A stretch of 32,000 bases of DNA from Candidatus Brocadia sp. (lineage in GTDB: Bacteria > Planctomycetota > Brocadiia > Brocadiales > Brocadiaceae). Made by a program: the position numbers and the translations under genes. The notes under the pieces were generated by a model. That model was not told the origin of the DNA and ran no database searches. It saw only the letters and a program-made list of their open reading frames with translations. Position 1 is the stretch's first letter. The number at the start of each line of letters is the position of its first letter. Location: contig CP091279.1 in the NCBI GenBank assembly GCA_021650915.1, positions 3,990,001-4,022,000 on the forward strand, read 5' to 3'. Positions 1,511 through 18,210 of this stretch are shown piece after piece.

Positions 1511-1527
1511 CATATACTCAATAATTT

Positions 1528-1672
1528 CGACAAAGGTAAACTCTGAGTGATCAGGGGGCGCAAAGTAAAGGGTCTTTCTCCACAGTTGAGATAGAGTGCA
1601 TCTCTTATAAAATAAAAAGATAGCCTTACTGCCGAAGCATTGTAATATTTAGCAGTAAGGCTATCTTTTTAG
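1528..1672 (+). promoter_or_regulatory. Candidate c-di-GMP-I (GEMM-I) riboswitch aptamer with overlapping intrinsic terminator, in the leader of the first OmcB-like gene
   Basis: On the + strand the order is ACAAAGGUAAAC (1531-1541), stem CUCUGA/UCAGGG capped by the GNRA loop GUGA (1541-1556), GG-CGCAAAG (1557-1565), then GAUAGCCUUACUGCCGAAG (1619-1637). This follows my recollection of the GEMM-I pattern AAAGGCAAAC-stem-GNRA-stem-GGACGCAAAGC ... AGC.GGG.UGCCGAA. GGUAA (1535-1539) can pair with UUACU (1626-1630). The 3' conserved block lies inside the 5' arm of the terminator hairpin. I could not fold the second (receptor) helix convincingly by eye. Confidence 0.4.
1614..1670. terminator. Perfect 19-bp hairpin (AAAAAGATAGCCTTACTGC / GCAGTAAGGCTATCTTTTT) flanked by an A-run and a T-run; intrinsic terminator
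   Basis: The arms 1614-1632 and 1652-1670 are exact reverse complements, and the 3' arm ends in TTTTT. It could terminate mltA, act as the riboswitch expression platform, or both. Confidence 0.7.
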
Positions 1673-1837
1673 TAATAACCGTAAAGGGATTGTTTGTCTT
1701 TAGCATGATTTTATTAAATACTCATACATAAAAGGGAGTATATAAGCCGCCTAAACGGCAAAGGAGTTGGCTCATGTTACAGGAAGCAAGAGGGCTCCTT
1801 TTAAAGATCATGTGTCTTTTTTAGAAAGGAGGAGTAA

Positions 1838-3469
1838 ATGAGGTTAAGGAATAGTATGTACAAATTGTTGTGTATTTCTGGCTTGATGTCGTTTGCACTT
1901 TACGGGTGCGGAATGTTCAAATATGAAGCTGGTGTCGAGCATGATAAGCCACCGTACTATCATGGACACGTTGAAGATGAACCACCGGCAAGGCACCTTC
2001 GGTCGCATGTACATGAAGCACCAGCTCCTGCACCAGCGCCAGCGCCTCAATCGGATGTCTGCACGGCAGATGGGGCATACCCGACGAATAGCAAGGATTG
2101 CTGCAGTGTTATTTATCTGCAAAAAATGGGCCCCTGCAGCGGTAGCGTGGGTCAGGAATATTGCTACGTAATAAAAGCCACGAACCTTACCAAAAGAAAG
2201 GTGAAAAACGTAGAAGTTATTCAGACCCTTCCCAAGAATTTTGAGGTGAGAAATTCCACCCCTGAATTGGGCACCGGAAGCGCGGGCGGTGTGGCGAAAT
2301 GGTTCTTGGGTGAGCTTGGCCCTGAAGAAACGAGAGAAATTAAGGTTTGCGGTATTCCGACACAAAGCGGAAACATGCCTTTCTGCACGGATGTTACGTA
2401 TAGTTTACCAGAGGTTTGCCTTGACCCGGTCATTACCGAGCCGAGGATAACCATCGCAAAGAGCGCTCCAGCCGAGGTTACCCTTTGTGATGTGATTCCG
2501 ATCACCTTTACCGTCACCAATACCGGCACGGGCGTAGCGAACAATATTAAAGTTAAGGAGACCTTGCCCGCAGGACTGGAGACGCAGGATGGCAGAACTG
2601 ATGTGGTCTTAGATGTTGGTTCATTAAATCCAGGCGAGTCGAGAGACGTTGCGTTGACGGCAAAAGCAACAAAAACCGGCACATTTAATAATACTGCGAC
2701 GGCGGTTGCCGATGGCGGTTTGAGTGCAGAATCCAATACAACCACGACTGCAGTAAGACAACCAGTGCTTGCTATCACAAAAGTAGGCAGCAGCGATAAA
2801 GTGTATCTGGGACGCAATATTTCATATGAAATTGTGGTAACCAACAATGGCGACTGCCCGGCGACATCAACCGTTGTTGAAGATAGCGTACCTGATAATG
2901 CCTCCGTGGTAAACGCCAGCGAAGGAGCAACCTTATTGGGTAGCACAGTTACCTGGAATGCAGGAACCATACAGCCGCAGGGATCACAGAAATTTACTCT
3001 GACGTTGAACCCCAAAGGCATTGGTACCGTGAAAAACACGGTGGCAGCGCGGGCTACCTGCGCAGAAGCCGTTTCAGCAGCAACTTCAACCGAAGTCGTA
3101 GGTATTGCTGCAATCCTGCTTGAGGTAATCGATATCGATGATCCTATTGAGGTTGGAAACGATGAAGTCTACGAAATCGTTGTAACCAACCAGGGTTCAG
3201 AAACGGGGACCAATATCAAAGTAACCTGCATACTTGAGGATGAAATGCAGTATGTAACTTCTGAAGGACCAACAACGGGAAGTGTTTCTGCTGACGGCAT
3301 GACGGTAACCTTCGACCCATTGCCAACCCTTGCTTCAAAGGCAAAAGCGATTTGGAAGGTCAAGGTGAAGGCGATGAAAGAGGGTGATGTCCGATTCAAG
3401 GTTATTATGACCGAGGATTGCCTGGGCAGACCAGTAGAAGAGACCGAAGCTACACATTTCTATGATTAA
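1838..3469 (+). CDS. Lipoprotein with four tandem DUF11 (conserved repeat domain) modules; OmcB-like (chlamydial 60-kDa cysteine-rich OMP-like)
   Basis: A strong RBS (AAAGGAGGAG) sits 5 nt before the ATG. The signal peptide ends in a lipobox-like ALYGC. A His/Pro-rich region with a (PA)5 linker follows. Repeated VTNxG..xxNxxV...LP modules are present. The C-terminal block DPIEVGNDEVYEIVVTNQGSETGTNIKV...GPT.G...VTFDPLPTLASKA...GDVRFKV...PVEETEATHFYD matches my memory of the OmcB C-terminus ([26 protein letters not shown]...GPTKG...VVFDSLPRLGSKE...GDARGEA...PVSDTENTHIY). Confidence 0.8.
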   Translation: MRLRNSMYKLLCISGLMSFALYGCGMFKYEAGVEHDKPPYYHGHVEDEPPARHLRSHVHEAPAPAPAPAPQSDVCTADGAYPTNSKDCCSVIYLQKMGPCSGSVGQEYCYVIKATNLTKRKVKNVEVIQTLPKNFEVRNSTPELGTGSAGGVAKWFLGELGPEETREIKVCGIPTQSGNMPFCTDVTYSLPEVCLDPVITEPRITIAKSAPAEVTLCDVIPITFTVTNTGTGVANNIKVKETLPAGLETQDGRTDVVLDVGSLNPGESRDVALTAKATKTGTFNNTATAVADGGLSAESNTTTTAVRQPVLAITKVGSSDKVYLGRNISYEIVVTNNGDCPATSTVVEDSVPDNASVVNASEGATLLGSTVTWNAGTIQPQGSQKFTLTLNPKGIGTVKNTVAARATCAEAVSAATSTEVVGIAAILLEVIDIDDPIEVGNDEVYEIVVTNQGSETGTNIKVTCILEDEMQYVTSEGPTTGSVSADGMTVTFDPLPTLASKAKAIWKVKVKAMKEGDVRFKVIMTEDCLGRPVEETEATHFYD

Positions 3470-3576
3470 GCTTCTCTTTTACTTCAGTGTCTGACACAAG
3501 CAGTCGGAGATGAAGTGATGTGAAGGAGACAGGAAGTTTTAGAATCTCCTTGAAGTGTAGTTGATTTTAGTATACA

Positions 3577-3622
3577 AAAGAAGGCCGGGACGCGTTCACC
3601 GACGCACCGGCCTTCTTTGTTT
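3577..3622 (+). terminator. Intrinsic terminator-like hairpin after the first OmcB-like gene
   Basis: AAAGAAGGCCGG (3577-3588) pairs with CCGGCCTTCTTT (3607-3618). There is an inner GCGT/ACGC pairing, and the hairpin is followed by GTTTC. Confidence 0.6.
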
Positions 3623-3792
3623 CATGGTAACAGTATCGTTTTTGTGTACTTGTGCAGTATGTTATAAAGGGTATACCTCGCACCCTTAGAATGACCTCAG
3701 AGTACGACAACCTGTAATATCTCGTGTTTGCAAACATCAAGTGCATATCTTTGTATTAACCAGATTCAACCTTTTTTGAAAGGGGTTATTGC

Positions 3793-5385
3793 ATGTATTG
3801 CCAAAAGAGACGAAATCCTTTGATGCTTATATGCATGGCTGTAATATTTGGTATCTATGGCTGCAGTTACCAGCAAAACGATTTTTCGAACGAGAAACCG
3901 CCATATGCACACGGACATCTTGAAAAAGACCCAGGCCCAAGGCACGAACGTTTGCACAAGGGTGAGAACAAAGCCACGTACGATAACCAGGAAGACAACA
4001 GGGCCTTTTCCGCCATAAACAAGAAGTCCGGTGTTATCTTTATCGAAAAAAGTGCGCCTCCGGAGATTCAGGTCAACAGACCATTTGACTATCTTATCAA
4101 GATTACGAACCTTACCGATGAAAGGGTGCATGACGTTGAGGTAACCGAAACATTTTCCCCAAAATACAAAATAAAAAACACTATCCCCAAATCACGGAAA
4201 GGCCCGGGGGAAGGAACCGTAACGTGGTCAATAGGAGACCTGGGACCGAATGAAATGAAAGAAATTCGGGTAACTGGTGTCTCATTAGAAACCGGAGACA
4301 TGCCGTTTTGTACCGATGTTACTTATAACTTGCCGCCACTCTGCCTTATTGCAACCGCCGTGGAGCCGAAGTTGACAATTACCAAACGTGCGCCCGCGGA
4401 GGTTTTATTATGTGATTCGATACCAGTAACTCTTGTGGTCAGTAATACTGGTACCGGCATCGCCAGGAATATCCAGGTGAGGGACACCCTGCCACAAGGA
4501 TTAAAAACGATCGATGGCAAGAGCAATATTGTTCAGGGAATTGATCTGTTACGGGCAGGAGAATCACGCGAGATTACCTTTACGGCTCAGGCAGACAGCC
4601 CGGGAAAGTTTGAGAATTCGGCAACGGTGGTTGCGGACGGTGGTCTGCAAGCCGAATCCAGTATGATTACCACCGTGGTAAAACAACCAGTACTGACCAT
4701 TGCCAAAAAGGGACCAGAGAGGATTTATACCGGACGCGACATTACTTACACAATCGGCGTAAGCAATAAGGGTGACGGTCCGGCAGCATCATCGGTTATT
4801 GAGGACACCATACCCGGGAACGCTACTTTTGTGAAGGCAGGCCAGGGCGGTATATTATCCGGAAACACGGTTACCTGGAATTTAGGGACTTTGCTGCCTC
4901 GCGACTCAAGAAAAGTCAGCGTGACTTTACAGGGAAGAGGTCTTGGCAAAATAACAAATACCGCAACCATTAAGGGTGAATGCGCCAGCCAGGCATCAGC
5001 AACCGCTGTTACCGACGTAATCGGGATAGCTGCTATTTTACTGGAAGTAATTGACCTGGCGGACCCCATAGAGGTTGGAAGCAATGAGACCTACGAGATT
5101 ACCGTGACCAACCAGGGCTCTGATTACAGCACCAATATCAGGATCGCCTGTACCCTTGAAGATACGATGCAGTATATATCCTCCGATGGGCCAACCAAGG
5201 GAACATGCGTTGGCAAGACCGTGACTTTTGATTCTTTAATAAGCCTTGCACCAAAGGCAGCAACAACCTGGAAGGTCGTTGTGAAGGCATTACGTCCCGG
5301 AGACGTTCGCTTCAAGGTCGAAATGATCGAGGACTGTCTGAGGAGGCCAGTAGAAGAGACGGAGGCAACCAATTTTTATGAATAA
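3793..5385 (+). CDS. Paralogous OmcB-like DUF11-repeat lipoprotein
   Basis: It is colinear with 1838..3469 along its whole length. It shares KPPY.HGH, MPFCTDVTY.LP, GIAAILLEVID..DPIEVG, VTNQGS, GDVRFKV and PVEETEATNFYE. Its lipobox-like sequence is GIYGC. Confidence 0.8.
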   Translation: MYCQKRRNPLMLICMAVIFGIYGCSYQQNDFSNEKPPYAHGHLEKDPGPRHERLHKGENKATYDNQEDNRAFSAINKKSGVIFIEKSAPPEIQVNRPFDYLIKITNLTDERVHDVEVTETFSPKYKIKNTIPKSRKGPGEGTVTWSIGDLGPNEMKEIRVTGVSLETGDMPFCTDVTYNLPPLCLIATAVEPKLTITKRAPAEVLLCDSIPVTLVVSNTGTGIARNIQVRDTLPQGLKTIDGKSNIVQGIDLLRAGESREITFTAQADSPGKFENSATVVADGGLQAESSMITTVVKQPVLTIAKKGPERIYTGRDITYTIGVSNKGDGPAASSVIEDTIPGNATFVKAGQGGILSGNTVTWNLGTLLPRDSRKVSVTLQGRGLGKITNTATIKGECASQASATAVTDVIGIAAILLEVIDLADPIEVGSNETYEITVTNQGSDYSTNIRIACTLEDTMQYISSDGPTKGTCVGKTVTFDSLISLAPKAATTWKVVVKALRPGDVRFKVEMIEDCLRRPVEETEATNFYE

Positions 5386-5480: not shown

Positions 5481-5510
5481 TTGACACAAAATACTCTCAT
5501 TAGCTATAAT
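5481..5510 (+). promoter_or_regulatory. Near-consensus sigma70 promoter (TTGACA-N18-TATAAT)
   Basis: TTGACA lies at 5481-5486 and TATAAT at 5505-5510. This would give a leader of about 165 nt before the hemerythrin-domain gene. Confidence 0.5.
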
Positions 5511-5682: not shown

Positions 5683-6486
5683 GTGTTTTTGGAGAATGTA
5701 TTAAATAAGGAAATAAAAAAGATCATTGACGACTGTCCTGAAGTAGGCCGTATTCTTGAGGAATATGGCATTGGCTGTGTCCCCTGTTCCGTGGGCAGCT
5801 GCCTTTTGAAGGATGTTGTGGGAATCCACAATCTTGATCCGGAACGGGAAGCCACCTTGATGTACCGGATAGAAAAGGCTATTTATCCTGATAGAAATGT
5901 TTCAAAGCCGGTGATAGATGCATCAAAAAAATCTGCGCCGAAGAAGATCACGTATTCACCACCGGTCAAAAAGCTGGTTGATGAGCATGTTCTGATCAAA
6001 CGGCTCCTGGCTTTAGTCCCTACCATTGTTGATTACATTGAAAGCAGCATGAAGGTGGATAAGGATCTGGTTTTAAAATGCGTTGATTTTATTCGGACCT
6101 ATGCAGACAAATATCATCACATGAAGGAAGAGGATATTTTGTTTAAGTATGTAGACGATAAGGCAGAGGTTATTCAGGTCATGTATAAGGACCATGACAC
6201 AGGAAGGGGTTACATCAGACAGGTTGTTGAGGGCGCTGAAACGGGGAATAAGGCGCAAATTAAGCAAAATCTGCTTGCCTATCGGGAATTGCTCACCCAG
6301 CATATTAAAAAAGAGGATGAAATTCTTTACCCGTGGATTGATCGCCAGCTATCAACAACTCAGGTCGGCGAGATGTTTCGCAAGTGTAATGAAGCGGACG
6401 CTTCGGTAGGCGAAGAGCTACCAAAAAAGTATGAGCGGTTTATTACTGATTTAGAAGGAAAATTTTTACAGGAGGTTGTGAAATGA
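5683..6486 (+). CDS. DUF1858 (redox-disulfide, hybrid-cluster-protein-associated type) plus hemerythrin-like HHE di-iron domain protein; RIC/YtfE-like architecture
   Basis: The N-terminus (IIDDCPEVGRILEEYGIGCVPCSVGSCLLKDV) is of the DUF1858 type. The C-terminal half has hemerythrin-like ligand spacing (DEHVLIKRLL, YADKYHHMKEEDILF, LLTQHIKKEDEILYPWI). The start is uncertain: GTG at 5683, or TTG at 5689, which is better spaced from AAGGAGG. Confidence 0.65.
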   Translation: MFLENVLNKEIKKIIDDCPEVGRILEEYGIGCVPCSVGSCLLKDVVGIHNLDPEREATLMYRIEKAIYPDRNVSKPVIDASKKSAPKKITYSPPVKKLVDEHVLIKRLLALVPTIVDYIESSMKVDKDLVLKCVDFIRTYADKYHHMKEEDILFKYVDDKAEVIQVMYKDHDTGRGYIRQVVEGAETGNKAQIKQNLLAYRELLTQHIKKEDEILYPWIDRQLSTTQVGEMFRKCNEADASVGEELPKKYERFITDLEGKFLQEVVK

Positions 6487-7053: not shown

Positions 7054-7602
7054 TTACATTCCTCTGAACAGATATCGTTGCGCCCGTGAGCTTTCTCCGC
7101 GTTGTATGTCTACTATCATTTCTGTGCCCGTGTCCTGGAATTGATACACGAGTTTCCCACCCCGTTCATCTGAGTGAGCAGAAAACAAGACCCTGCCGGA
7201 AACCGGGTTACCATCCAGGCTGGCTGCAACAATCTTTAAAGGCAGACAACACGCCGCCTGAAAGACCAGGGTATTGTCAAATGCCAGAAGATGTGAGTAG
7301 TGCGGTTTTCTGACACCTTTTTGTCTTACGGTGTTATCTGCCTTTCGCGAAAGAAGGACATGCGTATTATCAGGACGCATCTCAACCATATATTTTTCGC
7401 AGGCATCGATCATATTCTCCAAAGAAAGATTAATCCATAATCCCGCAAGCCTCAGCATTGTTTTTGCATCCTCCAAATCCTGTATAATACTATCAGGTGA
7501 AGCAACCGATCTTGTCCTCTCTCTGGAACTGAATGCCCTTGGAGCATGAAGGTCAACAAGCGGTAGCATTTCATAGTCTCTGTGCATCGTACTGATTGGC
7601 AT
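7054..7602 (-). CDS. Hypothetical protein (182 aa), downstream partner of the 837-aa orphan
   Basis: Its ATG overlaps the TGA of the upstream gene (TGATG on the minus strand at 7604-7600). It has no signal peptide, TM segment or motif that I recognise. Confidence 0.5.
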   Translation of the reverse strand: MPISTMHRDYEMLPLVDLHAPRAFSSRERTRSVASPDSIIQDLEDAKTMLRLAGLWINLSLENMIDACEKYMVEMRPDNTHVLLSRKADNTVRQKGVRKPHYSHLLAFDNTLVFQAACCLPLKIVAASLDGNPVSGRVLFSAHSDERGGKLVYQFQDTGTEMIVDIQRGESSRAQRYLFRGM

Positions 7603-10115
7603 CAGGTATTATTTCCATATTCTTTGATAATCGCCAGTTTATCAATTTCTTTCATGAGATCATCCATTTCCTCTTTTTGCGGTTCCTTAAAACCTTCTCC
7701 CACCTGGTAATGGAATATGGTGCTGACACTTTCCTTAAACATATCTTCCATTGATTGCGTCAAGGCAATCAATCGCACATCGATGTTACTTAGCAAATAC
7801 GTTATTTGGTCAAAAAGGACGCTGGTTGTCACACCGGAATGGATAAACGAATGACGATCTAAATTACTTTCGATATCATGCATGAACCCTTCAATCTGAG
7901 CAATCTGGTTTTGCAAAAGGAGAGTCGCCTTTTCCAGATTCTTTTTCAACAACTGGGAGCTCTTCAAATAGTCAATATGGACGTCAGGCTCCTTGGATAT
8001 TTTTTTATCTTTATTCCTGGTACATAACGAAATTCGATGGTCAATGTCTTTCACTGCCTTGATCAACTGGTTGAGCCGATTCTCCATAGCTTCAAATTCA
8101 GATACATTTTGATAATAACACGTATCTTTTAATTCTTCATGGAATCTCTCGATCTCCGTTAAAAATGCGTCCAATTCTTTTGCGCTATAAGAAAAAAAAT
8201 CAAAATCATTTTTAAAAGTATTAACCCTGCGGGTCAGAGTTTCTGTTTCTATAATATTTTTCAGACCTGCTTTAATATCAACAAACTTTTTAAAAACAGA
8301 ATTTTGATGCAACTTTTGCATAAAAACGCCCCTGTTGCTGTTTTGTTCCTTCGCAGGAATGTCTCTGCTGGTAACAAAATCCTCAAGGGACTGTACCGTA
8401 TTGATGATCTTTCCGTAGGCAACTTCCTTCAATGGTTTGTCAAAGAGAAGACCTTGTAACTCTTTTAATAACCCGTGAGCGGTTTCCTGATCCTGAGTAT
8501 TTTTCAATATTCCCATGGCGTTCAACTCATTTTGTAGCATTTCAAATTTATTGGATCTGGCAAAAATGGTCTTCAGAGGATCCTGGATGTCCTTTTGTCT
8601 CTCCATATCCTTTATTAGCCCTTTCAACTCATCAAGGGTATGGGACAAACTGGTAAATAGCGGCACGGATTTTTTTGCCTCTAAAAAGGCATCTTTCCCG
8701 GACACCGTCTTCAGTTTTGATAACTTTTCCAAATTCGCACTAAACTTTCCGATAAGCTGCTGAATGTCTTCTTGTTCTGGTTTTAAGACCTGATCCTGGC
8801 GGAAAACGGGCTTTGTGGAAATATTGATCGTTACGGAGAATACCGCCTCAATGCATTTTTTCAGTAAGGAGCCAAATTTCTTTGAGGATTTTTGAGCAAG
8901 CTGAATCACATCCTGCGTTCCCGACGCGGCCGCGCCTGTGTCCTTTATCGTTAAAAAATCGAGATATGCAAGAAGTTTCCCGAAAGAATTCAGCAATTCC
9001 TGGTAATCATTTTGGAGCATCTGATGCTTTGAAATGGTTTGCAATTTCTTCAATTCATGATAATTTGCCGTTAAATTTTCCTGTTCACTCCGAATGTCAG
9101 GTTTGTTTTTCATGAATTTTTTTGTTAATCGCGCAACAAACTTTTCAATACAATTCGCGTAGGTTAAGAAGAGACCGCATTCCTCCAGAAGCTTAAACTG
9201 GCCATTCAGCCTGCCGGACGCAGAATAGATATAACCTGCGTATGCGGGAATACCCTTCCAGTTATTATTTTCAATGATACGCTCAAGCCGCATTAAATCT
9301 GAAAATAATTCTTTATTAAATAACAGCGGATTATCCGTTGATGCGATGTGATTAAAAATATCAGCGAAGAAACCAAGGTCATCAATTTTTTCCTCAACGA
9401 TTTTCATCTCGCTCTCCTGAAGATGAAAGATTCTTAGCTTCAGATAATGCTGCTCTAAATCTAATTTGAGGATCAAAGAGATAAAATGGAGATTGACATA
9501 AATTTCCTTCAATCCCGTTGTCGTAAAGACCTTATTTTTCGTTTCAATTTTATTGAACCGAAGCTCCCTGCCTAATTTTTCCGAAGTTAATGGCAATCCG
9601 TTGAGAATTAAGTAGTCGCCGAACCGTCCTGTATACTTTTCATACGATTCCGCGTGGGTAATATAGTTGCGATGGATGTAATCCGGTGCACAAGCATCCG
9701 CCTGACCCTGTTCTGTTTCGTCAATGATCAGGAGATTGCTCGCGCCCTTTTCAATTCCTTTTTTGTAATGCAGTACGACATGAGGCTTCATCAGACATTG
9801 AATGAGGGACTCAATCTCAGATGGAGTAGCGGTAATGGCCGCTTCCACAAGACCTTTTTCTTTCACGGTAAGGATAGTATCAATTTTGCCGTTATGAAAC
9901 AACCGCCTGGAAATAATTTTCAGGGTCTTTTCAAAAGAAGTATCGATAACCTGCCCTTGAAACGTAACACGGAAGGCCTTCATCGGTTCCTTTGCCGACT
10001 TTCCCCTGGTCCTCGTTTTTACTTCGTCTATCTGTGCCCGCACAATCTCAGAGGTGTGATACTTCTTTTTTAAGAGCTCATACAAATAATTAGATGCTTG
10101 AGTTTTCATATGCAC
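7602..10115 (-). CDS. Large hypothetical protein (837 aa): N-terminal mixed-composition region of about 250 aa followed by a long K/E/L/I/N-rich, probably helical or coiled-coil region
   Basis: The reading frame is uninterrupted for 2.5 kb. It starts at GTG 10115 or ATG 10109. I found no Walker A, nuclease, protease, TM or signal motifs by eye. The DNA is visibly more AT-rich than the neighbouring genes. Confidence 0.6.
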   Translation of the reverse strand: MHMKTQASNYLYELLKKKYHTSEIVRAQIDEVKTRTRGKSAKEPMKAFRVTFQGQVIDTSFEKTLKIISRRLFHNGKIDTILTVKEKGLVEAAITATPSEIESLIQCLMKPHVVLHYKKGIEKGASNLLIIDETEQGQADACAPDYIHRNYITHAESYEKYTGRFGDYLILNGLPLTSEKLGRELRFNKIETKNKVFTTTGLKEIYVNLHFISLILKLDLEQHYLKLRIFHLQESEMKIVEEKIDDLGFFADIFNHIASTDNPLLFNKELFSDLMRLERIIENNNWKGIPAYAGYIYSASGRLNGQFKLLEECGLFLTYANCIEKFVARLTKKFMKNKPDIRSEQENLTANYHELKKLQTISKHQMLQNDYQELLNSFGKLLAYLDFLTIKDTGAAASGTQDVIQLAQKSSKKFGSLLKKCIEAVFSVTINISTKPVFRQDQVLKPEQEDIQQLIGKFSANLEKLSKLKTVSGKDAFLEAKKSVPLFTSLSHTLDELKGLIKDMERQKDIQDPLKTIFARSNKFEMLQNELNAMGILKNTQDQETAHGLLKELQGLLFDKPLKEVAYGKIINTVQSLEDFVTSRDIPAKEQNSNRGVFMQKLHQNSVFKKFVDIKAGLKNIIETETLTRRVNTFKNDFDFFSYSAKELDAFLTEIERFHEELKDTCYYQNVSEFEAMENRLNQLIKAVKDIDHRISLCTRNKDKKISKEPDVHIDYLKSSQLLKKNLEKATLLLQNQIAQIEGFMHDIESNLDRHSFIHSGVTTSVLFDQITYLLSNIDVRLIALTQSMEDMFKESVSTIFHYQVGEGFKEPQKEEMDDLMKEIDKLAIIKEYGNNT

Positions 10116-12992: not shown

Positions 12993-13027
12993 TTTATTAG
13001 GCGATACGTACCGTGCCTGGAGAAAAG

Positions 13028-13963
13028 ATGCCTATCATTCTCAATGCCTTCATTATAGCATTCATTATCGTATATATCAATATTCCCGAAATCTTAGCTG
13101 ATGAATACCAAATCGCAGTGCTTGCCAGTCGCAACGAATCCCCTTATAAGGAGGTAATTGCGGGTTTTCAGAAAACAATCATAGACCAGAGAAGAGATAC
13201 AAAGTGCAATGTCTTTATCATGGAAAACGATAAAACGCAAATATCACAAAGCTTTCGTGACATCAAAAAAATCAAACCCAGGGTACTCTTTACGGTTGGA
13301 ACTGCTCCCACGGTAGAAGCTCTCAAAGTATTTACTGATATACCCGTTGTTGCAACCCTTGTGCTTGATGATGATATGATACTGCACGCACGTAATGCTA
13401 CCGGGGTAATACTCAGTTTTCCCATAGAAACACAGTTCCATTTGCTCAAAAACTTTCTCCCGGAGGCAAAAAAGATTGGTGTTATTTACAACCCTGCGGA
13501 AAACCGGGAAAAAATCCGATCCGCCACAATCATAGCAGAAAAAATGGGGCTCGATCTTCATCCTGTGGATGTCCATTCGCCCAAAGATATTCCCAAGGCA
13601 CTCAAGACCTTGGCAAGTGGTATTGACATCTTGTGGGGAATAAATGATGCCCTGGTATTTAACTCGCTAACGGCAAAACAAATCTTGCTATTTTCCTTTA
13701 GAAATCATGTGCCATTCAGCGGTCTTTCTTCCACTTGGGTAAAGGCAGGCGCTCTGTATGCGCTGGAATATGATTTTCATGATATCGGCGTGCAGTGTGG
13801 CGAAAAATCCCTTAAGATCCTGCAGGGGGCAAAAGTAAACTCTCTGCCCGTATGTTTACCCCGAAAATTGCTTTATGCTTTGAATCTGAGAACGGCCAGA
13901 TACATGAAGATAAAATTTCGCGAAGAGCACATTCATAATGCATATCAGATTTTTGATGAATGA
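13028..13963 (+). CDS. Periplasmic ABC_sub_bind-family (PF04392-like) solute-binding protein, without adjacent permease or ATPase genes
   Basis: The pattern YQIAVLAS...PYKEVIAGF...VGTAPT...IPVV...ATGV...IGVIYNPAENREK...ND is typical of the family. The track start is GTG 13013; ATG 13028 has a better-placed GGAGAAAAG RBS. Confidence 0.7.
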   Translation: MPIILNAFIIAFIIVYINIPEILADEYQIAVLASRNESPYKEVIAGFQKTIIDQRRDTKCNVFIMENDKTQISQSFRDIKKIKPRVLFTVGTAPTVEALKVFTDIPVVATLVLDDDMILHARNATGVILSFPIETQFHLLKNFLPEAKKIGVIYNPAENREKIRSATIIAEKMGLDLHPVDVHSPKDIPKALKTLASGIDILWGINDALVFNSLTAKQILLFSFRNHVPFSGLSSTWVKAGALYALEYDFHDIGVQCGEKSLKILQGAKVNSLPVCLPRKLLYALNLRTARYMKIKFREEHIHNAYQIFDE

Positions 13964-15666
13964 TTATGGCAAGGACAAAAGAGACGACGGGAAAGAGACG
14001 ATTAAGCATTGCGGCGAAGTTTAATCTTCTAACCATTTTTATTATTCTGGTAACTGCGGCAGGAATAAGCTATTTCCTCATACAAAATGCTACTTCTCAT
14101 ATATATCGCAACCTGGTAAATCATGGCTTAATTATTGCCGGCATGGCGTCGCAAACCAGTGAATACTGTATCTACACCGGGGACAAAGAATCTATGAAGC
14201 TGATTATTGAAAGTCTGGAAGTGGATGAAGACATTGCCTATGTATGCCTTCTTGATAAAGAAAAAAGGCAACTTATGTTCAAAATCTTTATCCCTGGATT
14301 GGTAATTCCACCGCTTCCTCAAGGGGAGATGACAGACGACGGCTTCACCTTCACAACACACTACGAAGAATTTATAAATAGAGAAGATGGGAACCGATAC
14401 CTCGGCTTCTTTTCTCCCGTAATTGGCTATATCAATAACAAACCAAGCGATGAATTCTCAACCCACAAAGAAAGTGCGAACCAGGAGATTATTGGATATG
14501 TTCACCTTGGGTTATCGCTTCAAAACCTTCACAAAAGGATAAAGCAATTTCAGATATCTACGCTGGCCTTTACCTCGCTCTTCATATTTCTTGGCGTTAT
14601 CTTAACCCTGTTTCTTACAAAAAGAATTACTCTTCCCATCAAGAAATTAAGCTTAATAACAAAAAAAGTATCAATGGGTGTATTCGAACACACGGTTTCT
14701 GTTCGCACAAACGATGAAATTTCCGATCTTGCAGCCACCTTTAACCATATGGTCGACCGACTGCGAGCGTATCGCGAGGCGATAGAGTCACACAATCAGG
14801 AACTCTTAAATACCAATGAACACCTGTTACAGGAGATCACGATCCGTAAACAGATAGAGAGGGCGCTTGAAGAAAAGACTCGGGAGATTATCCGTTCGAA
14901 TAAGGATTTGGAGCAATTCGCCTATATCGTTTCCCATGATTTACAGGAACCCCTGCGAAAGGTAATGGTGTTTGGTGATCGGTTGAGTACGAAATATGGA
15001 CATGCCTTATCCCATGAAGGGCGTGATTATATCGATCGTATGAAAAATGCGTCACAGCGGATGCAAACCCTCATAACCGATCTTCTTGCTTACTCAAGAG
15101 TCACCACCCATACCAGACCATTCACCCGGGTTGATCTTGCCAGGCTCATTCAGGAGGTAATCAGCGATCTGGAAATCCGGTTAGAAAGAACGGGAGGACG
15201 GGTAATCCTTGGGAATTTACCGACTGTTCATGCTGATGCTGTTCAAATGCGACAGTTATTTCAAAATCTCATCGGGAACGCCCTGAAATACCATCGTGAT
15301 GGGGTGCCGCCGGTGATTGAGATTCAGACACACTACCCCAAGGGCATGAAGGAAGACCACACACAGACCTCTCACCGTAATGACTTGTGCGAAATTACGG
15401 TTGCAGATAACGGAATTGGGTTTGAAGAGAAGTATGCCGAGTACATCTTTGGAATTTTCCAGAGATTACACCGGCGCGATGAATACGAAGGAACTGGTGT
15501 AGGGCTGTCGCTTTGCCGAAAAATTGTAGAGCGTCACGGCGGAAGGATCACCGCAACAAGCGCTCCCGGGAAGGGTGCGAAATTTACTATTGTATTACCG
15601 GTAGCGCCAGCACAAGAAAAAAGCCATGGAAGGCACAAAGAAATTATTTCCCATCTTAATAGCTGA
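13960..15666 (+). CDS. Sensor histidine kinase (TM - periplasmic sensor domain of about 165 aa - TM - HAMP - HisKA - HATPase)
   Basis: Its start overlaps the upstream stop (ATGA). The H-box is FAYIVSHDLQEPLRKV, the N-box LIGNALKYH, G1 DNGIGF and G2 GTGVGLSLC. Confidence 0.85.
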   Translation: MIMARTKETTGKRRLSIAAKFNLLTIFIILVTAAGISYFLIQNATSHIYRNLVNHGLIIAGMASQTSEYCIYTGDKESMKLIIESLEVDEDIAYVCLLDKEKRQLMFKIFIPGLVIPPLPQGEMTDDGFTFTTHYEEFINREDGNRYLGFFSPVIGYINNKPSDEFSTHKESANQEIIGYVHLGLSLQNLHKRIKQFQISTLAFTSLFIFLGVILTLFLTKRITLPIKKLSLITKKVSMGVFEHTVSVRTNDEISDLAATFNHMVDRLRAYREAIESHNQELLNTNEHLLQEITIRKQIERALEEKTREIIRSNKDLEQFAYIVSHDLQEPLRKVMVFGDRLSTKYGHALSHEGRDYIDRMKNASQRMQTLITDLLAYSRVTTHTRPFTRVDLARLIQEVISDLEIRLERTGGRVILGNLPTVHADAVQMRQLFQNLIGNALKYHRDGVPPVIEIQTHYPKGMKEDHTQTSHRNDLCEITVADNGIGFEEKYAEYIFGIFQRLHRRDEYEGTGVGLSLCRKIVERHGGRITATSAPGKGAKFTIVLPVAPAQEKSHGRHKEIISHLNS

Positions 15667-16072
15667 AGACGATCCGGATGACCGTCTCATCATACACGAC
15701 GCCTTTGAAGAAGCCGGCATGCATCATGCGGTTCATTACGTCGAGGATGGTCAGGAGTTAATGGATTATCTTTGCTTGCGGGGAAAATACTCCTGGCCAA
15801 ACCATTCACCGCGCCCGGGTATTATTCTCCTTGATCTGAATATGCCCAAAAAAAACGGACAAGATGCGCTAAGCGAAATCAAATCAGACCCGAGCCTGAA
15901 GCGAATCCCTGTTATTGTCATGACAACATCAAAAAGAGACGAGGATATCGGATTTCTGTATGATTTGGGCGCAAATTCATACATCCATAAACCAACGGAT
16001 TTTGCAACATTAGTAACAATTGTAAAGACGTTATCAAGATATTGGTTCGAAATTGTTGAACTCCCATCATAA
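15626..16072 (+). CDS. Single-domain CheY-like response regulator (Rcp1-like)
   Basis: Motifs are ILIAEDDPDDRLI, LLDLNMPKKNG (phospho-acceptor Asp) and SYIHKP. Its start lies 41 nt inside the end of the kinase gene, in another frame. Confidence 0.8.
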   Translation: MEGTKKLFPILIAEDDPDDRLIIHDAFEEAGMHHAVHYVEDGQELMDYLCLRGKYSWPNHSPRPGIILLDLNMPKKNGQDALSEIKSDPSLKRIPVIVMTTSKRDEDIGFLYDLGANSYIHKPTDFATLVTIVKTLSRYWFEIVELPS

Positions 16073-16086
16073 GGAGTAGAAATGCG

Positions 16087-18210
16087 ATGAACAATACCCG
16101 AATACGAATACTTCTCGTGGACGACGACGAAGATGATTATGTAATAGCCCGTGAATTGTTTTCTGAAATCTCGACCTGGAAACCTGAACTGGATTGGGTA
16201 AAAACGTATGACGCAGCAATGGAAATGATCCGGACAAGACAGCATGATGTGTATCTCTTTGATTATCGGCTTGGTCTCGGCGAACACACCGGACTGGAAC
16301 TCTTGCGTGAAACGATAACCACGGGTTGCAAGGCTCCCATAATCATCCTCACCGGTCAGGGAGATTACCGTGTGGATATGGAGGCAATACGAAAAGGTGC
16401 ATCGGATTACCTGATTAAGGGGCAGATAAACTCTTCACTGTTGGAGAAATCGATCCGCCATGCCATTGAACGCAAGCGTGCGGAAGAAGCAATCAGATCA
16501 GCAAAAAATTATTCGGAATACCTTGTTGCATGCTCGCTCGATATGATTGTTGCCGCCAACTTAGGCTTAGAAATCACCGAATTCAACCCCTCCGCCGAAA
16601 AGATGTTTGGCTATTGCAAGTCAGAAGTACTTGGCAAATCAATCCGCATGCTGTTTGCAGACGCCATGGAATCCAAACAGGTTACTGAAAAAATATTAAA
16701 AGAAAAGATTTTTTCAGGAGAAATAAATAAAAGAAAAAAAAGCGGGGAGATTTTCCCCTCCTTCTTATCTGCATCCATCCTGAAGGATATCAATGATAAA
16801 GAAATAGGAATCGTAGGTATTTTGCGCGATATAACAGAACGCAATCGTCTTATCGATCAACTCCGGTACAATGCATTTCACGATCCGTTAACAAACTTGC
16901 CCAACAGGAATCTGTTCATGGAACGATTGGAGCGCTTACTTGAACACGCAAAAAGAAACAGAAACAGTGCGTTTTCCGTCCTCTTTCTCGATCTCGACCG
17001 TTTCAAGGTGGTAAACGATAGCCTCGGTCACCTCTCGGGAGATAAATTGCTGATCTTAATTGCACAAAAATTGAGAGAATGCCTGCGAAGATCGGATACC
17101 GTTGCTCGTTTTGGAGGAGATGAGTTTGCAATCCTTCTTGATAATGTCGATGACCACTTCAATGCAAAATTTGTGGCAGAGAGAATCCTGGAAACCTTGA
17201 AGGATCCTTTCGTCCTCGACGGACACAAAATTGTTGTTTCTGCCAGCATTGGAATTGTTATAAAAGGCGAATTGTATAATCGTCCGGAGGATATTCTGAG
17301 AGACGCCGACACGGTGATGTATCGGGCAAAGATGCTTGGCAAGGCACGGTATGCAATATTTAATATTGAAATGCATGCCCATGCAATGAACTTTTTACAG
17401 TTAGAGACGGACCTCCGGCATGCTATTGAACGCTCGGAACTCGTCATTTATTATCAGCCCATTGTGTCATTGGCAACCTCGGAAATTGTTGCCGTCGAAT
17501 CTCTCGTTCGCTGGCAACATCCACAACGTGGCTTAATTTTACCGGATGAGTTCATTCCCCTGGCAGAGGAAACCCGGGAGATCGATAAGGTTGGCTATTG
17601 GGTTATCCAAGAGGCATGCGCCCAAAATAAGGCATGGCATGATATGGGATTTTCAAACATAACCGTCACCGTGAATATATCGTTGTTACAATTCCAGCGT
17701 AAGGAATTGCCGGAACAGATCGGAACAATCATTAAAAACACTGGCTTATCTGCCGACGCCTTTGAATTGGAAATCACGGAAAGCACGGTAATGGAGAGCA
17801 AGGGACTCGTTCTCGAAATTTTTAAAGAACTGAATAAGATGAAAATCCATCTCATGATGGATGATTTTGGTATCGGTTTTTCTTCAATCAACAGTTTGAA
17901 GCATCTTCCTTTCAGCACGTTAAAAATTGACCGGTCTTTAATTTCGGACATTGACACCAATCCGGACGCCTCGGCAATTGTCAAATCCATTATAGACATG
18001 GCGCACACGCTGAAAATAAAAGTGATTGCAGAGGGAGTGGAGACACCAGGCCAACTGGAGCTGTTGCGGTCGTATAACTGTGATTATGCACAGGGGTACT
18101 TGTTCTACTGTCCCATGAAAGCAGAAGAGATTACCAGCCTGCTGAGACAGTCAAAGAAATATCCGTCAGAAAAGAAAAGTAACATTACGCGTGAATTCAG
18201 TCCTTCGTAA
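16087..18210 (+). CDS. REC-PAS-GGDEF-EAL c-di-GMP turnover protein
   Basis: The REC domain shows ILLVDDDEDDY and DVYLFDYRLG. A PAS domain follows (..RDITERN). The GGDEF motif RFGGDEFAIL is intact. The EAL domain has ESLVRW in place of EALVRW, plus ELEITES, DDFGIGFSS, EGVET and QGYLF. Confidence 0.85.
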   Translation: MNNTRIRILLVDDDEDDYVIARELFSEISTWKPELDWVKTYDAAMEMIRTRQHDVYLFDYRLGLGEHTGLELLRETITTGCKAPIIILTGQGDYRVDMEAIRKGASDYLIKGQINSSLLEKSIRHAIERKRAEEAIRSAKNYSEYLVACSLDMIVAANLGLEITEFNPSAEKMFGYCKSEVLGKSIRMLFADAMESKQVTEKILKEKIFSGEINKRKKSGEIFPSFLSASILKDINDKEIGIVGILRDITERNRLIDQLRYNAFHDPLTNLPNRNLFMERLERLLEHAKRNRNSAFSVLFLDLDRFKVVNDSLGHLSGDKLLILIAQKLRECLRRSDTVARFGGDEFAILLDNVDDHFNAKFVAERILETLKDPFVLDGHKIVVSASIGIVIKGELYNRPEDILRDADTVMYRAKMLGKARYAIFNIEMHAHAMNFLQLETDLRHAIERSELVIYYQPIVSLATSEIVAVESLVRWQHPQRGLILPDEFIPLAEETREIDKVGYWVIQEACAQNKAWHDMGFSNITVTVNISLLQFQRKELPEQIGTIIKNTGLSADAFELEITESTVMESKGLVLEIFKELNKMKIHLMMDDFGIGFSSINSLKHLPFSTLKIDRSLISDIDTNPDASAIVKSIIDMAHTLKIKVIAEGVETPGQLELLRSYNCDYAQGYLFYCPMKAEEITSLLRQSKKYPSEKKSNITREFSPS

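Follow-up and report, generated by a model that had tools for sequence, protein, structure and literature searches.

One described relative of the proteins analyzed here is chlamydial OmcB (CT443), the 60-kDa large cysteine-rich outer membrane complex protein, with Chlam_OMP6 and DUF11 domains, whose topology is itself debated (PMC2811131). A planctomycete homologue of CT443 without cysteines was reported in 2006 (Griffiths and Gupta; PMC1403754). DUF11 domains, also called CLIPPER domains, typically build adhesin stalks (bioRxiv 10.1101/2025.04.25.650565), and a role as adhesins in methanogen aggregates has been suggested for DUF11 "OmcB-like" proteins (PMC11224092). In anammox granules, c-di-GMP correlates with EPS and with aggregation (PMC11224092); one passage of the same paper cites the type IV pili of C. 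difficile as riboswitch-regulated.

We analyzed a 32,000-nt stretch of DNA (the window; all coordinates are positions within it) from the anammox bacterium Candidatus Brocadia. As the original prediction had it, two neighboring ORFs encode proteins of 543 and 530 amino acids, and both the coordinates and the lengths were correct:

1826-1834, + strand: Shine-Dalgarno sequence AAGGAGGAG of gene A (read from the sequence; kept in the Brocadia alignment)
1838-3469, + strand: gene A, 543 aa (ORF, Pfam, AlphaFold2 model, OmcB homology)
1838-1909, + strand: signal and lipobox of A (aa 1-24)
1910-2053, + strand: disordered His/Pro tether of A (aa 25-72)
2054-2101, + strand: Cys-containing pre-D1 strand of A (aa 73-88)
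2102-2431, + strand: D1 of A (aa 89-198)
2432-2758, + strand: D2 of A (aa 199-307)
2759-3100, + strand: D3 of A (aa 308-421)
3101-3466, + strand: D4 of A (aa 422-543)
3793-5385, + strand: gene B, 530 aa (ORF, Pfam, identity to A, BLASTP against OmcB)
3793-3864, + strand: signal and lipobox of B (aa 1-24)
aa 25-78 of B, + strand: tether of B
4027-4356, + strand: D1 of B (aa 79-188)
4357-4683, + strand: D2 of B (aa 189-297)
4684-5022, + strand: D3 of B (aa 298-410)
5023-5382, + strand: D4 of B (aa 411-530)

For gene A, we chose the start that gives 543 aa, and not the database model of 527 aa, because of the strong Shine-Dalgarno sequence. The ribosome binding site of gene B (AAAGGGG, 8 nt 5' of the ATG) is weaker. 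The protein already has a database entry, which assigns it to Ca. Brocadia fulgida and describes it as a DUF11 protein. The tandem is kept in Brocadia, Kuenenia, and Jettenia despite differing flanking genes, and across 80 loci we found no conserved neighbor that would point to a pathway.

A and B are 49% identical over their full lengths, with 20-41% identity in the tether, the pre-D1 segment, and D1, versus 68% in D4. So the N-terminal part is the most divergent between the paralogs, as had been claimed, and the rest of the predicted architecture was also borne out. Both proteins have a lipobox-type signal (ALYGC in A and GIYGC in B, with the Cys at residue 24 in each) that fits the regular expression [LVIMFWSTAG]{2}[LIVMFYSTAGCQ][AGS]C, which we take to be similar to PROSITE PS51257. 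In the alignment of the family, conservation of Cys24 is 90% or more, and a lipobox is present in most non-chlamydial family members; the Kuenenia orthologues lack it. The tether is indeed rich in His and Pro (the 48 residues of A include 6 His and 9 Pro; the 54 of B, 4 of each), and in A it has 7 acidic residues (E+D) versus 4 basic ones (K+R). AlphaFold2 predicts that residues 22-71 of A are disordered and that beta-sandwich domains begin at residue 74 (mean pLDDT of 87.4). The four DUF11 repeats in each protein are evident as four stretches that match PF01345 (146.7 bits for A and 150.4 bits for B, versus a cutoff of 24.6). Finally, as originally noted, only A, the first paralog, has the (AP)5 run (aa 60-69) and a cluster of Cys (aa 75-109).

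Sequence comparisons indicate that A and B are genuine colinear homologues of chlamydial OmcB. In BLASTP against authentic C. pneumoniae OmcB (P0126), both are 30-31% identical (E = 4e-56 for A and 5e-57 for B), each in a single HSP; that of A (aa 81-542 versus 102-556) reaches the C-terminal end. A profile-profile comparison with hhalign covers 445 columns (probability of 100%, E = 1e-86). The original prediction spoke of full-length homologues: the four domains are colinear up to the C-terminal Tyr, but the similarity holds only from about residue 81 on, and the tether of A is just 6% identical to the N-terminus of OmcB over a few aligned positions. The predicted match of the C-terminal block to OmcB, motif for motif, is real and specific. 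D4 is 42-44% identical to D4 of OmcB, with an SW score of 240 in register (z = 42) versus at most 62 out of register, and the tail ETE[AS]T-x-[FLV]Y is near-universal in the family. For D2 and D3, the in-register scores (105-123) and the cross-scores (93-104) are close together, and pairwise comparison of D1 gave no in-register signal. The alignment is colinear through D4, so the proposed check against OmcB did not reveal generic DUF11 likeness alone.

Two other checks had a different outcome. A hit to Chlam_OMP6 (PF03504) above threshold had been set beforehand as a test, and both proteins fall short of the cutoff of 34.1 bits (16.3 bits for A, at aa 81-170 and profile positions 2-87 of 91; 16.2 bits for B). 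An approximate OmcB sequence of the C. trachomatis type, which shares 91-93% identity with OmcB entries in databases, reaches 200.3 bits. Across 55 non-chlamydial members of the family, PF03504 matches 40 with E ≤ 0.01, and 16 are at about the gathering level. (NCBIfam has no HMM for OmcB; its only match to authentic OmcB is TIGR01451.) As for phylogeny, in midpoint-rooted neighbor-joining trees, A and B fall within an anammox clade (bootstrap of 97) inside a Planctomycetota/Lentisphaerota cluster, and outside the chlamydial OmcB clade, which is separate (bootstrap of 99-100).

We considered whether A and B could be called OmcB in a strict sense, and rejected this. Besides the sub-threshold scores for PF03504 and the position in the trees, they are poor in cysteine (15 Cys, or 2.8%, in A and 10, or 1.9%, in B; on average, Chlamydiaceae-type OmcB has 5.3% and environmental-chlamydial OmcB has 9.7%), they lack the basic N-terminus, and there is no omcA: the flanking and intergenic DNA contains no ORF of at least 20 aa for a small Cys-rich lipoprotein.

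Instead, A and B are members of an unnamed and very large PVC-wide family of OmcB-like DUF11 lipoproteins. Like other members, they have about 500-560 aa, four DUF11-type domains, D4 at the C-terminus, and the tail ETE[AS]T-x-x-Y. We confirmed at least 547 loci in species-representative genomes of Planctomycetota and Lentisphaerota, and a search with D4 alone found 2,125 cluster representatives with this signature C-terminal domain (E ≤ 1e-10), mostly proteins of 500-560 aa in which D4 ends at the last residue. D4 is also matched by giant DUF11 repeat proteins, via their many repeats. In Planctomycetia-labelled loci, a "second paralog" clade of about 760 aa adjoins family members. Given the size of the family and the report from 2006 (PMC1403754), the novelty implied by the original prediction was overstated. 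In our judgment, the pair is unexceptional within its family, apart from an interesting twist in its regulation; what goes beyond the original prediction is the putative riboswitch of gene A, which had gone unremarked, and the family-wide isopeptide-type triads.

These triads (Lys/acid/Asn) are in D2 and D3 and were lost in the Chlamydiaceae. The Lys of D2 is present in 111 of 121 non-chlamydial sequences and in 80 of 84 environmental-chlamydial OmcBs, and the acid of D2 is present in 119 of the 121; for D3, the corresponding counts are 119 of 121 (Lys) and 121 of 121 (Asp/Glu). Conservation is 90% or higher for both Asn285 and Asn400. Just 4 of the 26 Lys in the folded part of A are at least 90% conserved, and 3 of these are at the equivalent position in the first strand of D1, D2, and D3. 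In the solved CLIPPER structure 9IFR, the isopeptide Lys715 aligns with K315 and K208, and the acid of D-x-L aligns with D349 and E241; the register of the Asn relative to N806 is ambiguous by about 3 residues, although the Asn is conserved. D1 and D4 lack a triad; in D4, an invariant Glu takes the place of the Lys. D3 of one family member passes NCBIfam's isopeptide-forming model TIGR04226 (37.5 bits versus a threshold of 30). In CLIPPER domains, such a triad gives rise autocatalytically to an intramolecular isopeptide bond, and these patterns suggest that D2 and D3 may form Lys-Asn bonds of this kind. Since the triads are kept and Cys-rich cross-linking is absent, covalent stabilization would come from isopeptides and a few conserved disulfides.

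Upstream of gene A, and between the two genes, we found candidate regulatory elements:

1482-1510, + strand: promoter-like -35/-10 (TTGACA-17-TATCTT; 10/12 in a consensus scan that as a whole was at background level), directly 5' of the riboswitch
1526-1637, + strand: putative aptamer of the c-di-GMP-I riboswitch clan in the 5' leader of gene A; best family RF03167 (c-di-GMP-I-GGC)
1613-1671, + strand: intrinsic terminator hairpin and T-run (expression platform)
3577-3622, + strand: candidate intrinsic terminator (GC-rich hairpin and UUUGUUU) between A and B

TTGACA and a downstream TATAT are conserved in the aligned upstream regions from Brocadia, and 1482-1510 may act as a promoter. The aptamer matches the full model (1-80 of 80; Rfam clan CL00126, RF03167/RF01051) with 58.0 bits, versus a gathering score of 59 (E = 3e-13 for the leader and 2e-11 for the whole window). 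Among related leaders, L010 is above the gathering score (60.4 bits) and L012 has 58.5 bits. The Rfam-derived structure is 92.7% paired over 8 Brocadia-group leaders, versus 27-49% for slid controls; these leaders are closely related and showed no covariation beyond that of shuffles. The aptamer is on the sense strand, ends 200 nt 5' of the ATG of gene A, and carries an insert in its P2 loop that is large and variable. At one position, the consensus of RF03167 has G (GCG-AAG) and the window instead carries A (GCGC-A-AAG), the nucleotide that is canonical for c-di-GMP-I. RF03167, the family with the highest score, is the GGC variant; the ligand may be c-di-GMP.

The 5' arm of the terminator (1619-1632) is shared with the 3' strands of the aptamer, and the minimum-energy fold of 1517-1675 is the terminator form, with 20 base pairs (-49.9 kcal/mol, z = -5.8). 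Across 8 genomes, pairing of its hairpin amounts to 92%. Two compensatory pairs were seen, a count that 8 of 500 shuffles also reached, and T-runs of 5-7 are 3' of the stem in all 8 Brocadia-group genomes. Eight Brocadia-group genomes have the riboswitch and the overlapping terminator 5' of gene A. We did not find the riboswitch at L013-L015, in Kuenenia, Jettenia, or the Scalindua lineage, at about 60 other PVC loci, or at gene B. Because it is confined to one clade of the Brocadia group, control by c-di-GMP is not a property of the family. The spacer between A and B has an inverted repeat, AAGAAGGCCGG, at 3578-3588 and 3607-3617; this hairpin (-27.1 kcal/mol, z = -5.0) is conserved in 5 Brocadia-group spacers, and the sequence flanking it is not.

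We think it reasonably probable that this is a pair of OmcB-like lipoproteins with an envelope-anchored structural or adhesive role, with A under the control of a c-di-GMP riboswitch. In this Brocadia fulgida-like bacterium, signal peptidase II would cleave the products of the two paralogous PVC-wide genes, and each would be lipid-anchored at Cys24. From the anchor, a disordered His/Pro tether of about 50 residues would lead to a rod of four DUF11/CLIPPER Ig-like beta-sandwich domains, which would terminate in the signature D4 and the ETEAT-x-FY tail. The proteins would thus have the ancestry and architecture of OmcB without its Cys-rich, disulfide-crosslinking character. Gene A would be its own transcription unit (promoter, riboswitch, overlapping terminator, gene, and its own terminator), and gene B would be downstream of that last terminator and without a riboswitch. 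If the aptamer, once it has bound its ligand, keeps the 5' arm of the terminator occupied, then high c-di-GMP should turn gene A on, and the A isoform would be made upon entry into an aggregated state (biofilm or granule) with high c-di-GMP. Most likely, these are envelope-anchored structural or adhesive proteins, and the riboswitch points to a role for gene A in aggregation or in remodeling of the envelope.

It seems unlikely that A and B are functional equivalents of OmcB, that is, a cross-linked lattice in the periplasm or outer membrane that stiffens the envelope and is lipid-anchored in cis instead of by OmcA. All four domains are colinear with those of OmcB, the lipobox could replace a separate omcA gene (there is none nearby), and four cysteines (C183, C194, C217, and C408) are invariant across about 121 non-chlamydial members; also, in 6 Brocadiaceae loci, the upstream neighbor is the murein transglycosylase MltA. 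However, MltA is not adjacent in Kuenenia, and 2-3% Cys (versus 5-10% in OmcB) is not enough to link the molecules into a disulfide network. Because anammox bacteria possess peptidoglycan, it is not obvious why they would require a replacement for the sacculus. And induction of A by c-di-GMP, if it occurs, would be more in keeping with a surface function needed under certain conditions than with a scaffold that is always present.

More doubtful still is that A and B are periplasmic lipoproteins that bind or buffer metals via the His-rich tether, with the Ig rod as a mere spacer. The tether is otherwise variable, yet its motif PPY-x-HGH-x-E-x-x-P-x-x-RH is kept in both paralog lineages and in Kuenenia, and the wider neighborhood contains a TonB-dependent receptor and the metal-transport genes CbiM/CbiQ. 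But the motif is limited to the Brocadiaceae (it is absent from Scalindua-lineage sequences and from other PVC members), conservation is highest in D4 and the C-terminal tail, no metal transporter is linked to the family in a conserved way, and the riboswitch is of the c-di-GMP type instead of metal-sensing.

That A and B are ordinary DUF11 proteins with no specific relationship to OmcB is effectively refuted, despite the weak PF03504 scores, the D1-D3 comparisons, and the giant repeat proteins that match D4, by the in-register score of D4, the single gap-poor HSP or hhalign path over 445-465 residues to both C-termini, the common length, domain order, and terminal ETE-x-T-x-x-Y, and the PF03504 matches in other non-chlamydial members.

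Overall, our preferred reading, an envelope-anchored OmcB-like pair with A under riboswitch control, resembles several known systems in part. Chlamydial OmcB has a similar length (about 530-560 aa), the same order of N-terminal signal, non-globular tract, and four beta-sandwich domains, and a C-terminal E-T/x-E-x-T-H-x-Y in common with A and B. It differs in its Cys content (5-10%, versus 2.8% and 1.9%) and in its basic GAG-binding tract, where A and B have a His/Pro-rich, acidic tether; A and B carry the lipobox in cis, without an omcA or srp partner, and they keep the Lys/acid triads of D2 and D3 that Chlamydiaceae OmcB has lost. CAD72259 of Rhodopirellula baltica (Griffiths and Gupta 2006; PMC1403754) is also non-chlamydial and Cys-free or Cys-poor, has its similarity concentrated towards the C-terminus, and belongs to the superfamily that we found across the Planctomycetota, but at 907 aa it resembles the clade of ~760-aa second paralogs and not the compact anammox type (530-545 aa). 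The CLIPPER stalks of fibrillar adhesins, such as 9IFR, share strong membership in PF01345 (147 and 150 bits for A and B), and in D2 and D3 the first-strand Lys, the acid of D/E-x-[LIV]-P, and, to within about 3 residues, the late-strand Asn line up with K715, the D-x-L acid, and N806 of 9IFR. Unlike those stalks, A and B have only four domains, with no adhesive head and no long array, and they are lipoproteins instead of fibers displayed by sortase, T1SS, or T5SS. The archaeal "OmcB-like" DUF11 proteins of Methanothermobacter and Methanobacterium formicicum are also envelope repeat proteins linked to aggregated growth (PMC11224092), but probably have only the DUF11 repeat in common with A and B. 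Finally, as with the c-di-GMP-I (GEMM-I) riboswitches of adhesion, pilus, and biofilm genes, a complete match to the aptamer clan lies in the 5' leader of a surface or envelope gene and has a terminator-based expression platform; here, the host is an anammox planctomycete, the gene is from the OmcB family, and the best match is to the GGC variant, with a score at the threshold.

Two open reading frames on the forward strand lie exactly where the original prediction had placed them. The encoded proteins, A and B, are 49% identical across their full length, and both have the architecture that had been described for them. Each begins with a lipobox-type signal (a positively charged n-region, a hydrophobic core, and then ALYGC in A or GIYGC in B, with the cysteine at position 24), and Cys24 is at least 90% conserved in an alignment of 55 family members. 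A His/Pro-rich tract follows (6 His and 9 Pro per 48 residues in A; 4 His and 4 Pro per 54 in B), and then four consecutive DUF11 domains, which we call D1 to D4 (Pfam scores of 146.7 bits for A and 150.4 bits for B, versus a cutoff of 24.6). The (AP)5 run and the Cys cluster, which had been noticed in the first protein only, are indeed found in A and not in B. The KDCCSVIY portion of the cluster is kept in A-type orthologs and in Kuenenia; the (AP)n run is not. For A, we favor the 543-residue start because a strong Shine-Dalgarno sequence (AAGGAGGAG) precedes it. The database model of A (527 amino acids) cuts into the signal peptide.

AlphaFold2 predicts that residues 22–71 of A are disordered (pLDDT below 50) and that the remainder is confident beta-structure (mean pLDDT 87.4). 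A and B probably undergo SPII processing and lipid anchoring, and each probably consists of a flexible tether that bears a rigid rod of four Ig domains. When we compared the AlphaFold2 model to the PDB with Foldseek, we found only generic multi-Ig matches (integrin legs, PrgB, and antigen I/II) and none that were specific. In Kuenenia-type copy 1 (P0032, P0036, and P0029, which are orthologs of A), the signal peptide lacks the lipobox cysteine, so anchoring may differ among anammox genera. The tethers of both proteins contain a His-rich motif, (K)PPY-x-HGH-x-E-x-x-P-x-x-RH (residues 36–55 of A and 34–53 of B, or about 1943–2002 and 3892–3951 in the window). Both paralog lineages keep the motif, as does Kuenenia, while the surrounding tether is otherwise variable.

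Features of the A–B locus:
1482–1510: promoter-like TTGACA-17-TATCTT, conserved, just upstream of the aptamer
1526–1637 (+): c-di-GMP-I-clan aptamer
1613–1632 with 1652–1671 (+): terminator hairpin of 20 bp followed by a T-run; its 5' arm shares the aptamer's 3' strands (1619–1632)
1826–1834 (+): Shine-Dalgarno sequence of A
1838–3469 (+): gene A, 543 amino acids
3577–3622 (+): GC-rich hairpin followed by UUUGUUU
3793–5385 (+): gene B, 530 amino acids

The only Rfam match in the 32-kb window lies upstream of the region that the original prediction covered, in the 5' leader of A. It is a match to RF03167 (58 bits, versus a gathering score of 59; E = 3e-13) across model positions 1–80 of 80, and related leaders score 60.4 bits (L010) and 58.5 bits (L012). 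Where the consensus of the GGC variant has G, the aptamer in the window has A, which we take to be the canonical c-di-GMP-I nucleotide. The minimum-energy fold without ligand is the terminator form (−49.9 kcal/mol, z = −5.8). In eight Brocadia-group genomes, pairing reaches 92.7% in the aptamer and 92.0% in the terminator, versus 27–52% for slid controls, and the terminator has two compensatory pairs. Covariation within the aptamer was no better than in shuffled alignments, because the eight leaders are too closely related. The bound aptamer would sequester the 5' arm of the terminator, so this is probably an ON switch. Judging from these sequences, c-di-GMP would induce isoform A.

The riboswitch seems to be specific to Brocadia. 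We ran Rfam on the whole window and on 45 loci, and a dedicated covariance model on 81 sources (679 kb), and recovered only the eight training leaders; neither approach detected the riboswitch in Brocadiaceae that are more distant, in Kuenenia, in Jettenia, in the Scalindua lineage, or in some 60 other PVC loci. A pattern scan for sigma-70 promoters and terminators gave hits at the background level, and it overlooked the hairpins at 1613–1671 and 3577–3622 because of its limits on loops and bulges. The 166 nucleotides between the terminator and the ribosome binding site (1672–1837, +) contain other blocks of conservation, among them a small GCCGCC...GGC hairpin (about 1746–1760) and the stretch that precedes the ribosome binding site. 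Another kind of riboswitch lies upstream of a family gene in a Brocadiaceae MAG (L015, 2260–2477, −): it is a cobalamin riboswitch (94.7 bits), and CbiM/CbiQ genes are in the same region of other Brocadia loci.

The hairpin between A and B (−27.1 kcal/mol, z = −5.0) is common to five Brocadia-group spacers that are otherwise divergent, pointing to separate transcription units for A and B. Given the riboswitch and terminator in its leader and the candidate terminator after it, gene A looks like a riboswitch-controlled monocistronic unit. No promoter was identified for B, which would be expressed by read-through or from its own promoter. The original prediction had read the divergence of the paralogs as a sign of differing surface or ligand-binding specificity. 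Besides their sequences, their regulation seems to differ too: A is under riboswitch control and is terminated, and B is separate. This is a clearer account of the divergence than ligand specificity alone.

A and B belong to a large and conserved PVC family. Their nearest database entries are Candidatus Brocadia proteins, and a cluster of 100% identical sequences includes BROFUL_02819 from Ca. Brocadia fulgida, which carries the annotation "hypothetical / DUF11 domain-containing protein." When one genome per GTDB species was scanned, at least 547 loci were confirmed. Among the 79 loci listed are Brocadia, Kuenenia, Jettenia, the Scalindua lineage, Lentisphaeria, Victivallales, Phycisphaerae (Sedimentisphaerales and Anaerohalosphaeraceae), and MAGs labelled as Planctomycetia (Pirellulales and Planctomycetales). 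An exhaustive search with D4 only yielded 4,840 cluster representatives at E ≤ 1e-3; at E ≤ 1e-10 there were 2,125, and the best matches were mostly proteins of 500–560 amino acids with D4 at the extreme C-terminus. Across 80 loci, no neighbor is conserved family-wide. There is synteny at the level of lineages: 6 Brocadiaceae loci have MltA upstream, and Phycisphaerae have RmuC-like and MscS-like genes nearby.

The tandem pair is present in Brocadia, Kuenenia (547 and 530 amino acids), and Jettenia, and its flanks vary by genus: Brocadia has MltA and a hemerythrin-domain gene there, and Kuenenia has an aminotransferase and an Lcl_C-domain gene. Two Scalindua-lineage loci (L021 and L023) have a single copy within 4 kb. 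In a neighbor-joining tree of the conserved core, Brocadia A is in one clade and Brocadia B in another, the two Kuenenia copies pair together, and so do the Jettenia copies. By reciprocal tblastn, copy 1 from Kuenenia is more A-like (558 vs. 492) and copy 2 is more B-like (541 vs. 484); furthermore, copy 1 has the A-type KDCCSVIY motif. We infer a single duplication in the ancestor of the Brocadiaceae, followed by partial gene conversion; alternatively, the duplications may have been independent. Other Planctomycetota loci independently hold an adjoining and longer paralog of about 760 amino acids. We considered whether these second copies might be the paralog that is nearest to chlamydial OmcB, and rejected this, as they form their own clade. 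They lie upstream of the family gene in several Planctomycetia-labelled MAGs (L049, L053, L065, L073, L083, L085, and others) and have their own lipobox and the same C-terminal tail as the family gene. This clade is possibly the type of the 907-residue R. baltica protein that was noted in 2006.

Elsewhere in the window, a perfect sigma-70 consensus (TTGACA-18-TATAAT, 12/12; 5481–5510, +) lies about 170 nucleotides upstream of the hemerythrin-domain gene (5683–6486). Two ORFs of 837 and 182 amino acids (7054–10115, −) have no Pfam match; ORFs of the same size and position (838–854 and 182 amino acids) are called in the B. sapporoensis loci L004–L006. About 10 kb downstream, a signaling cluster (13013–18210, +) encodes a protein with an ABC-type substrate-binding domain, a HAMP histidine kinase, and a REC-PAS-GGDEF-EAL protein. 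The latter (16087–18210) is an enzyme of c-di-GMP turnover, and it shares the window with the riboswitch.

In 2025, Pfam's DUF11 was renamed CLIPPER: it has a CnaA-like Ig fold, often with an autocatalytic Lys-Asn isopeptide bond, and the solved example 9IFR has K715, N806, and a nearby Asp (bioRxiv 10.1101/2025.04.25.650565). Among the 26 lysines in the folded part of A, just 4 are at least 90% conserved, and three of these (K96, K208, and K315) are at the equivalent first-strand position of D1–D3. When aligned with 9IFR, K715 falls on K315 and on K208, and the D-x-L acid falls on D349 and on E241; the register of the Asn is ambiguous by about 3 residues. Searches of PDB sequences with the protein and the family profile gave marginal matches only (9IFR at E = 0.19). 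In one family member from the Lentisphaerae, D3 scores above the threshold of TIGR04226, which is NCBIfam's model for isopeptide-forming domains. We counted the triad residues in an alignment of 234 family sequences.

Conservation of the putative isopeptide triads in non-chlamydial members (n = 121), environmental-chlamydial OmcBs (n = 84), and Chlamydiaceae-type OmcBs (n = 20):
D2 Lys (K208 of A): non-chlamydial 111/121; environmental-chlamydial 80/84; Chlamydiaceae-type 0/20 (all Gln)
D2 acid (E241 of A): non-chlamydial 119/121 (D or E); environmental-chlamydial 81/84; Chlamydiaceae-type 1/20 (19 Asn)
D3 Lys (K315 of A): non-chlamydial 119/121; environmental-chlamydial 78/84; Chlamydiaceae-type 0/20 (Ile or Val)
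D3 acid (D349 of A): non-chlamydial 121/121 (114 Asp, 7 Glu); environmental-chlamydial 82/84; Chlamydiaceae-type 19/20 (17 Asp, 2 Glu)

Conservation of Asn285 and of Asn400 is at least 90% in the first two groups, and these residues are present in 20/20 and 17/20 of the Chlamydiaceae-type proteins. These patterns suggest that D2 and D3 are stabilized by isopeptide bonds. By the alignment, the putative triads are kept everywhere (Planctomycetota, Lentisphaerota, and environmental chlamydiae) except in the Chlamydiaceae, which lost both triad lysines and mostly the D2 acid. D4 has an invariant Glu at the position of the Lys and so has no triad. K96 of D1 is at the isopeptide-Lys position and is 90% conserved; D1 lacks a conserved Asn partner. 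The CLIPPER paper does not mention OmcB (bioRxiv 10.1101/2025.04.25.650565), and our literature search found no relevant publication that links OmcB with isopeptide bonds.

What might A and B do? In general, c-di-GMP favors adhesion and the production of matrix, and in anammox granules it is correlated with EPS (PMC11224092). CLIPPER domains are typically the stalks of adhesins (bioRxiv 10.1101/2025.04.25.650565), and OmcB is regarded as an adhesin (PMC2811131). For these reasons we favor an envelope-anchored structural or adhesive protein that is linked to aggregation, and we consider the overall picture reasonably likely. The architecture, the homology, the conservation patterns, the RNA match, and the alternative folds are directly supported; we are less confident about the specific physiological role. 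A cross-linked lattice, as formed by OmcB, seems unlikely. Four cysteines (C183, C194, C217, and C408) are invariant in about 121 non-chlamydial members, and a C217–C408 pair is hinted at because both are missing from OmcB's cysteine-poor sister clade; but cysteine makes up just 2.8% of A and 1.9% of B, versus averages of 5.3% for Chlamydiaceae-type OmcBs and 9.7% for those of environmental chlamydiae. Binding of metals by the tether motif (PPY-x-HGH...RH) is more doubtful still; the motif is absent from Scalindua-lineage sequences and from other PVC members.

The original prediction was that A and B are full-length homologs of OmcB. Apart from a C. trachomatis sequence, which was used only to fetch database entries and as a positive control for PF03504, our comparisons used retrieved sequences such as P0126 (C. 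pneumoniae) and P0122 (Chlamydia sp.). By BLASTP, A aligns to P0126 in a single HSP that reaches both C-termini (amino acids 81–542 vs. 102–556, 30% identity, E = 4e-56), as had been expected, and B is similar to P0126 as well (31% identity, E = 5e-57). A profile-profile comparison of 55 non-chlamydial members with 29 chlamydial OmcBs gave a probability of 100% and E = 1e-86 over 445 columns, in an almost indel-free path from the domain equivalent to Chlam_OMP6 to the terminal Tyr. Mere generic DUF11 similarity is effectively refuted by Smith-Waterman comparisons of individual domains: although D1 was not discriminating, D2 and D3 each scored best in register (115 vs. 93 and 105 vs. 94), and D4 scored 240 in register (z = 42) but at most 62 out of register. 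The identity of A to OmcB climbs from 24% in D1 to 44% in D4.

Even so, A and B belong to the OmcB family in the wide sense only. The colinear body and C-terminus support homology, but A and B are not OmcB in the strict sense. They score just 16.3 and 16.2 bits against Chlam_OMP6 (PF03504), which is below the cutoff of 34.1, so the expected hit was not obtained; the positive control scored 200.3 bits. The weak match in A does sit at the colinear position, and 40 of the 55 non-chlamydial members match PF03504 at E ≤ 0.01. (NCBIfam has no OmcB model, and authentic OmcB matches only TIGR01451.) Unlike in OmcB, the N-terminal tract of A and B is not basic, and it is unrelated to OmcB's; also, no small Cys-rich ORF similar to omcA was found near A and B. 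In neighbor-joining trees, A and B are in an anammox clade (bootstrap 97) inside a cluster of Planctomycetota and Lentisphaerota; the chlamydial clade and the cysteine-poor clade that is sister to it lie apart. The trees also place a cysteine-rich "OmcB family" protein that is labelled as Victivallaceae bacterium (P0144 / P0270) with Chlamydiaceae OmcB, which could reflect mis-binning, mislabelling, or lateral transfer. Many environmental-chlamydial OmcBs (P0150–P0216) have a lipobox-like L-A-S-C motif and then a Cys-rich NRNWCDC tract, so they may themselves be lipoproteins, unlike textbook Chlamydia OmcB.

Nor are OmcB homologs in a free-living PVC bacterium as novel as had been proposed, because A and B fail the tests that define OmcB, the family has very many members, and the link to planctomycetes has long been known: a planctomycete homolog of CT443 (OmcB) without cysteines was reported in 2006 (PMC1403754), and the conservation of chlamydial outer membrane proteins across the PVC group was noted in 2009 (PMC2811131). 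Literature searches for OmcB with anammox or Kuenenia found nothing relevant (the matches for "OmcB + Kuenenia" are to a Geobacter cytochrome of the same name), and a search for riboswitches with anammox found no relevant publication. The value of this locus lies instead in the Brocadia-specific c-di-GMP-type riboswitch on A and in the isopeptide-type triads that were lost specifically in the Chlamydiaceae; we found no description of either in the accessible literature. Gene A is one of few candidates for a direct target of c-di-GMP in an anammox bacterium. In anammox reactors, granulation is correlated with levels of c-di-GMP, but little is known of the effectors. An envelope protein under riboswitch control offers biotechnology a tractable lead.

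We tentatively propose that OmcB arose from a rod of four CLIPPER domains that was PVC-wide, lipid-anchored, and stabilized by isopeptide bonds. Environmental chlamydiae would have gained cysteines while keeping the triads, and the Chlamydiaceae would then have lost both triad lysines and relied on disulfides alone. In Brocadia, A would have been captured by a c-di-GMP ON-riboswitch, as a direct RNA-level output that promotes cell aggregation and granulation, with B expressed independently. Although it may well be wrong, this is a concrete and testable scenario for how the outer membrane complex of chlamydiae evolved. OmcB and its free-living relatives share the same four-domain body and C-terminal tail, while the richness in cysteine and the strong Chlam_OMP6 signature are chlamydial specializations, albeit with 16 of the 55 non-chlamydial members still scoring at roughly the gathering level.
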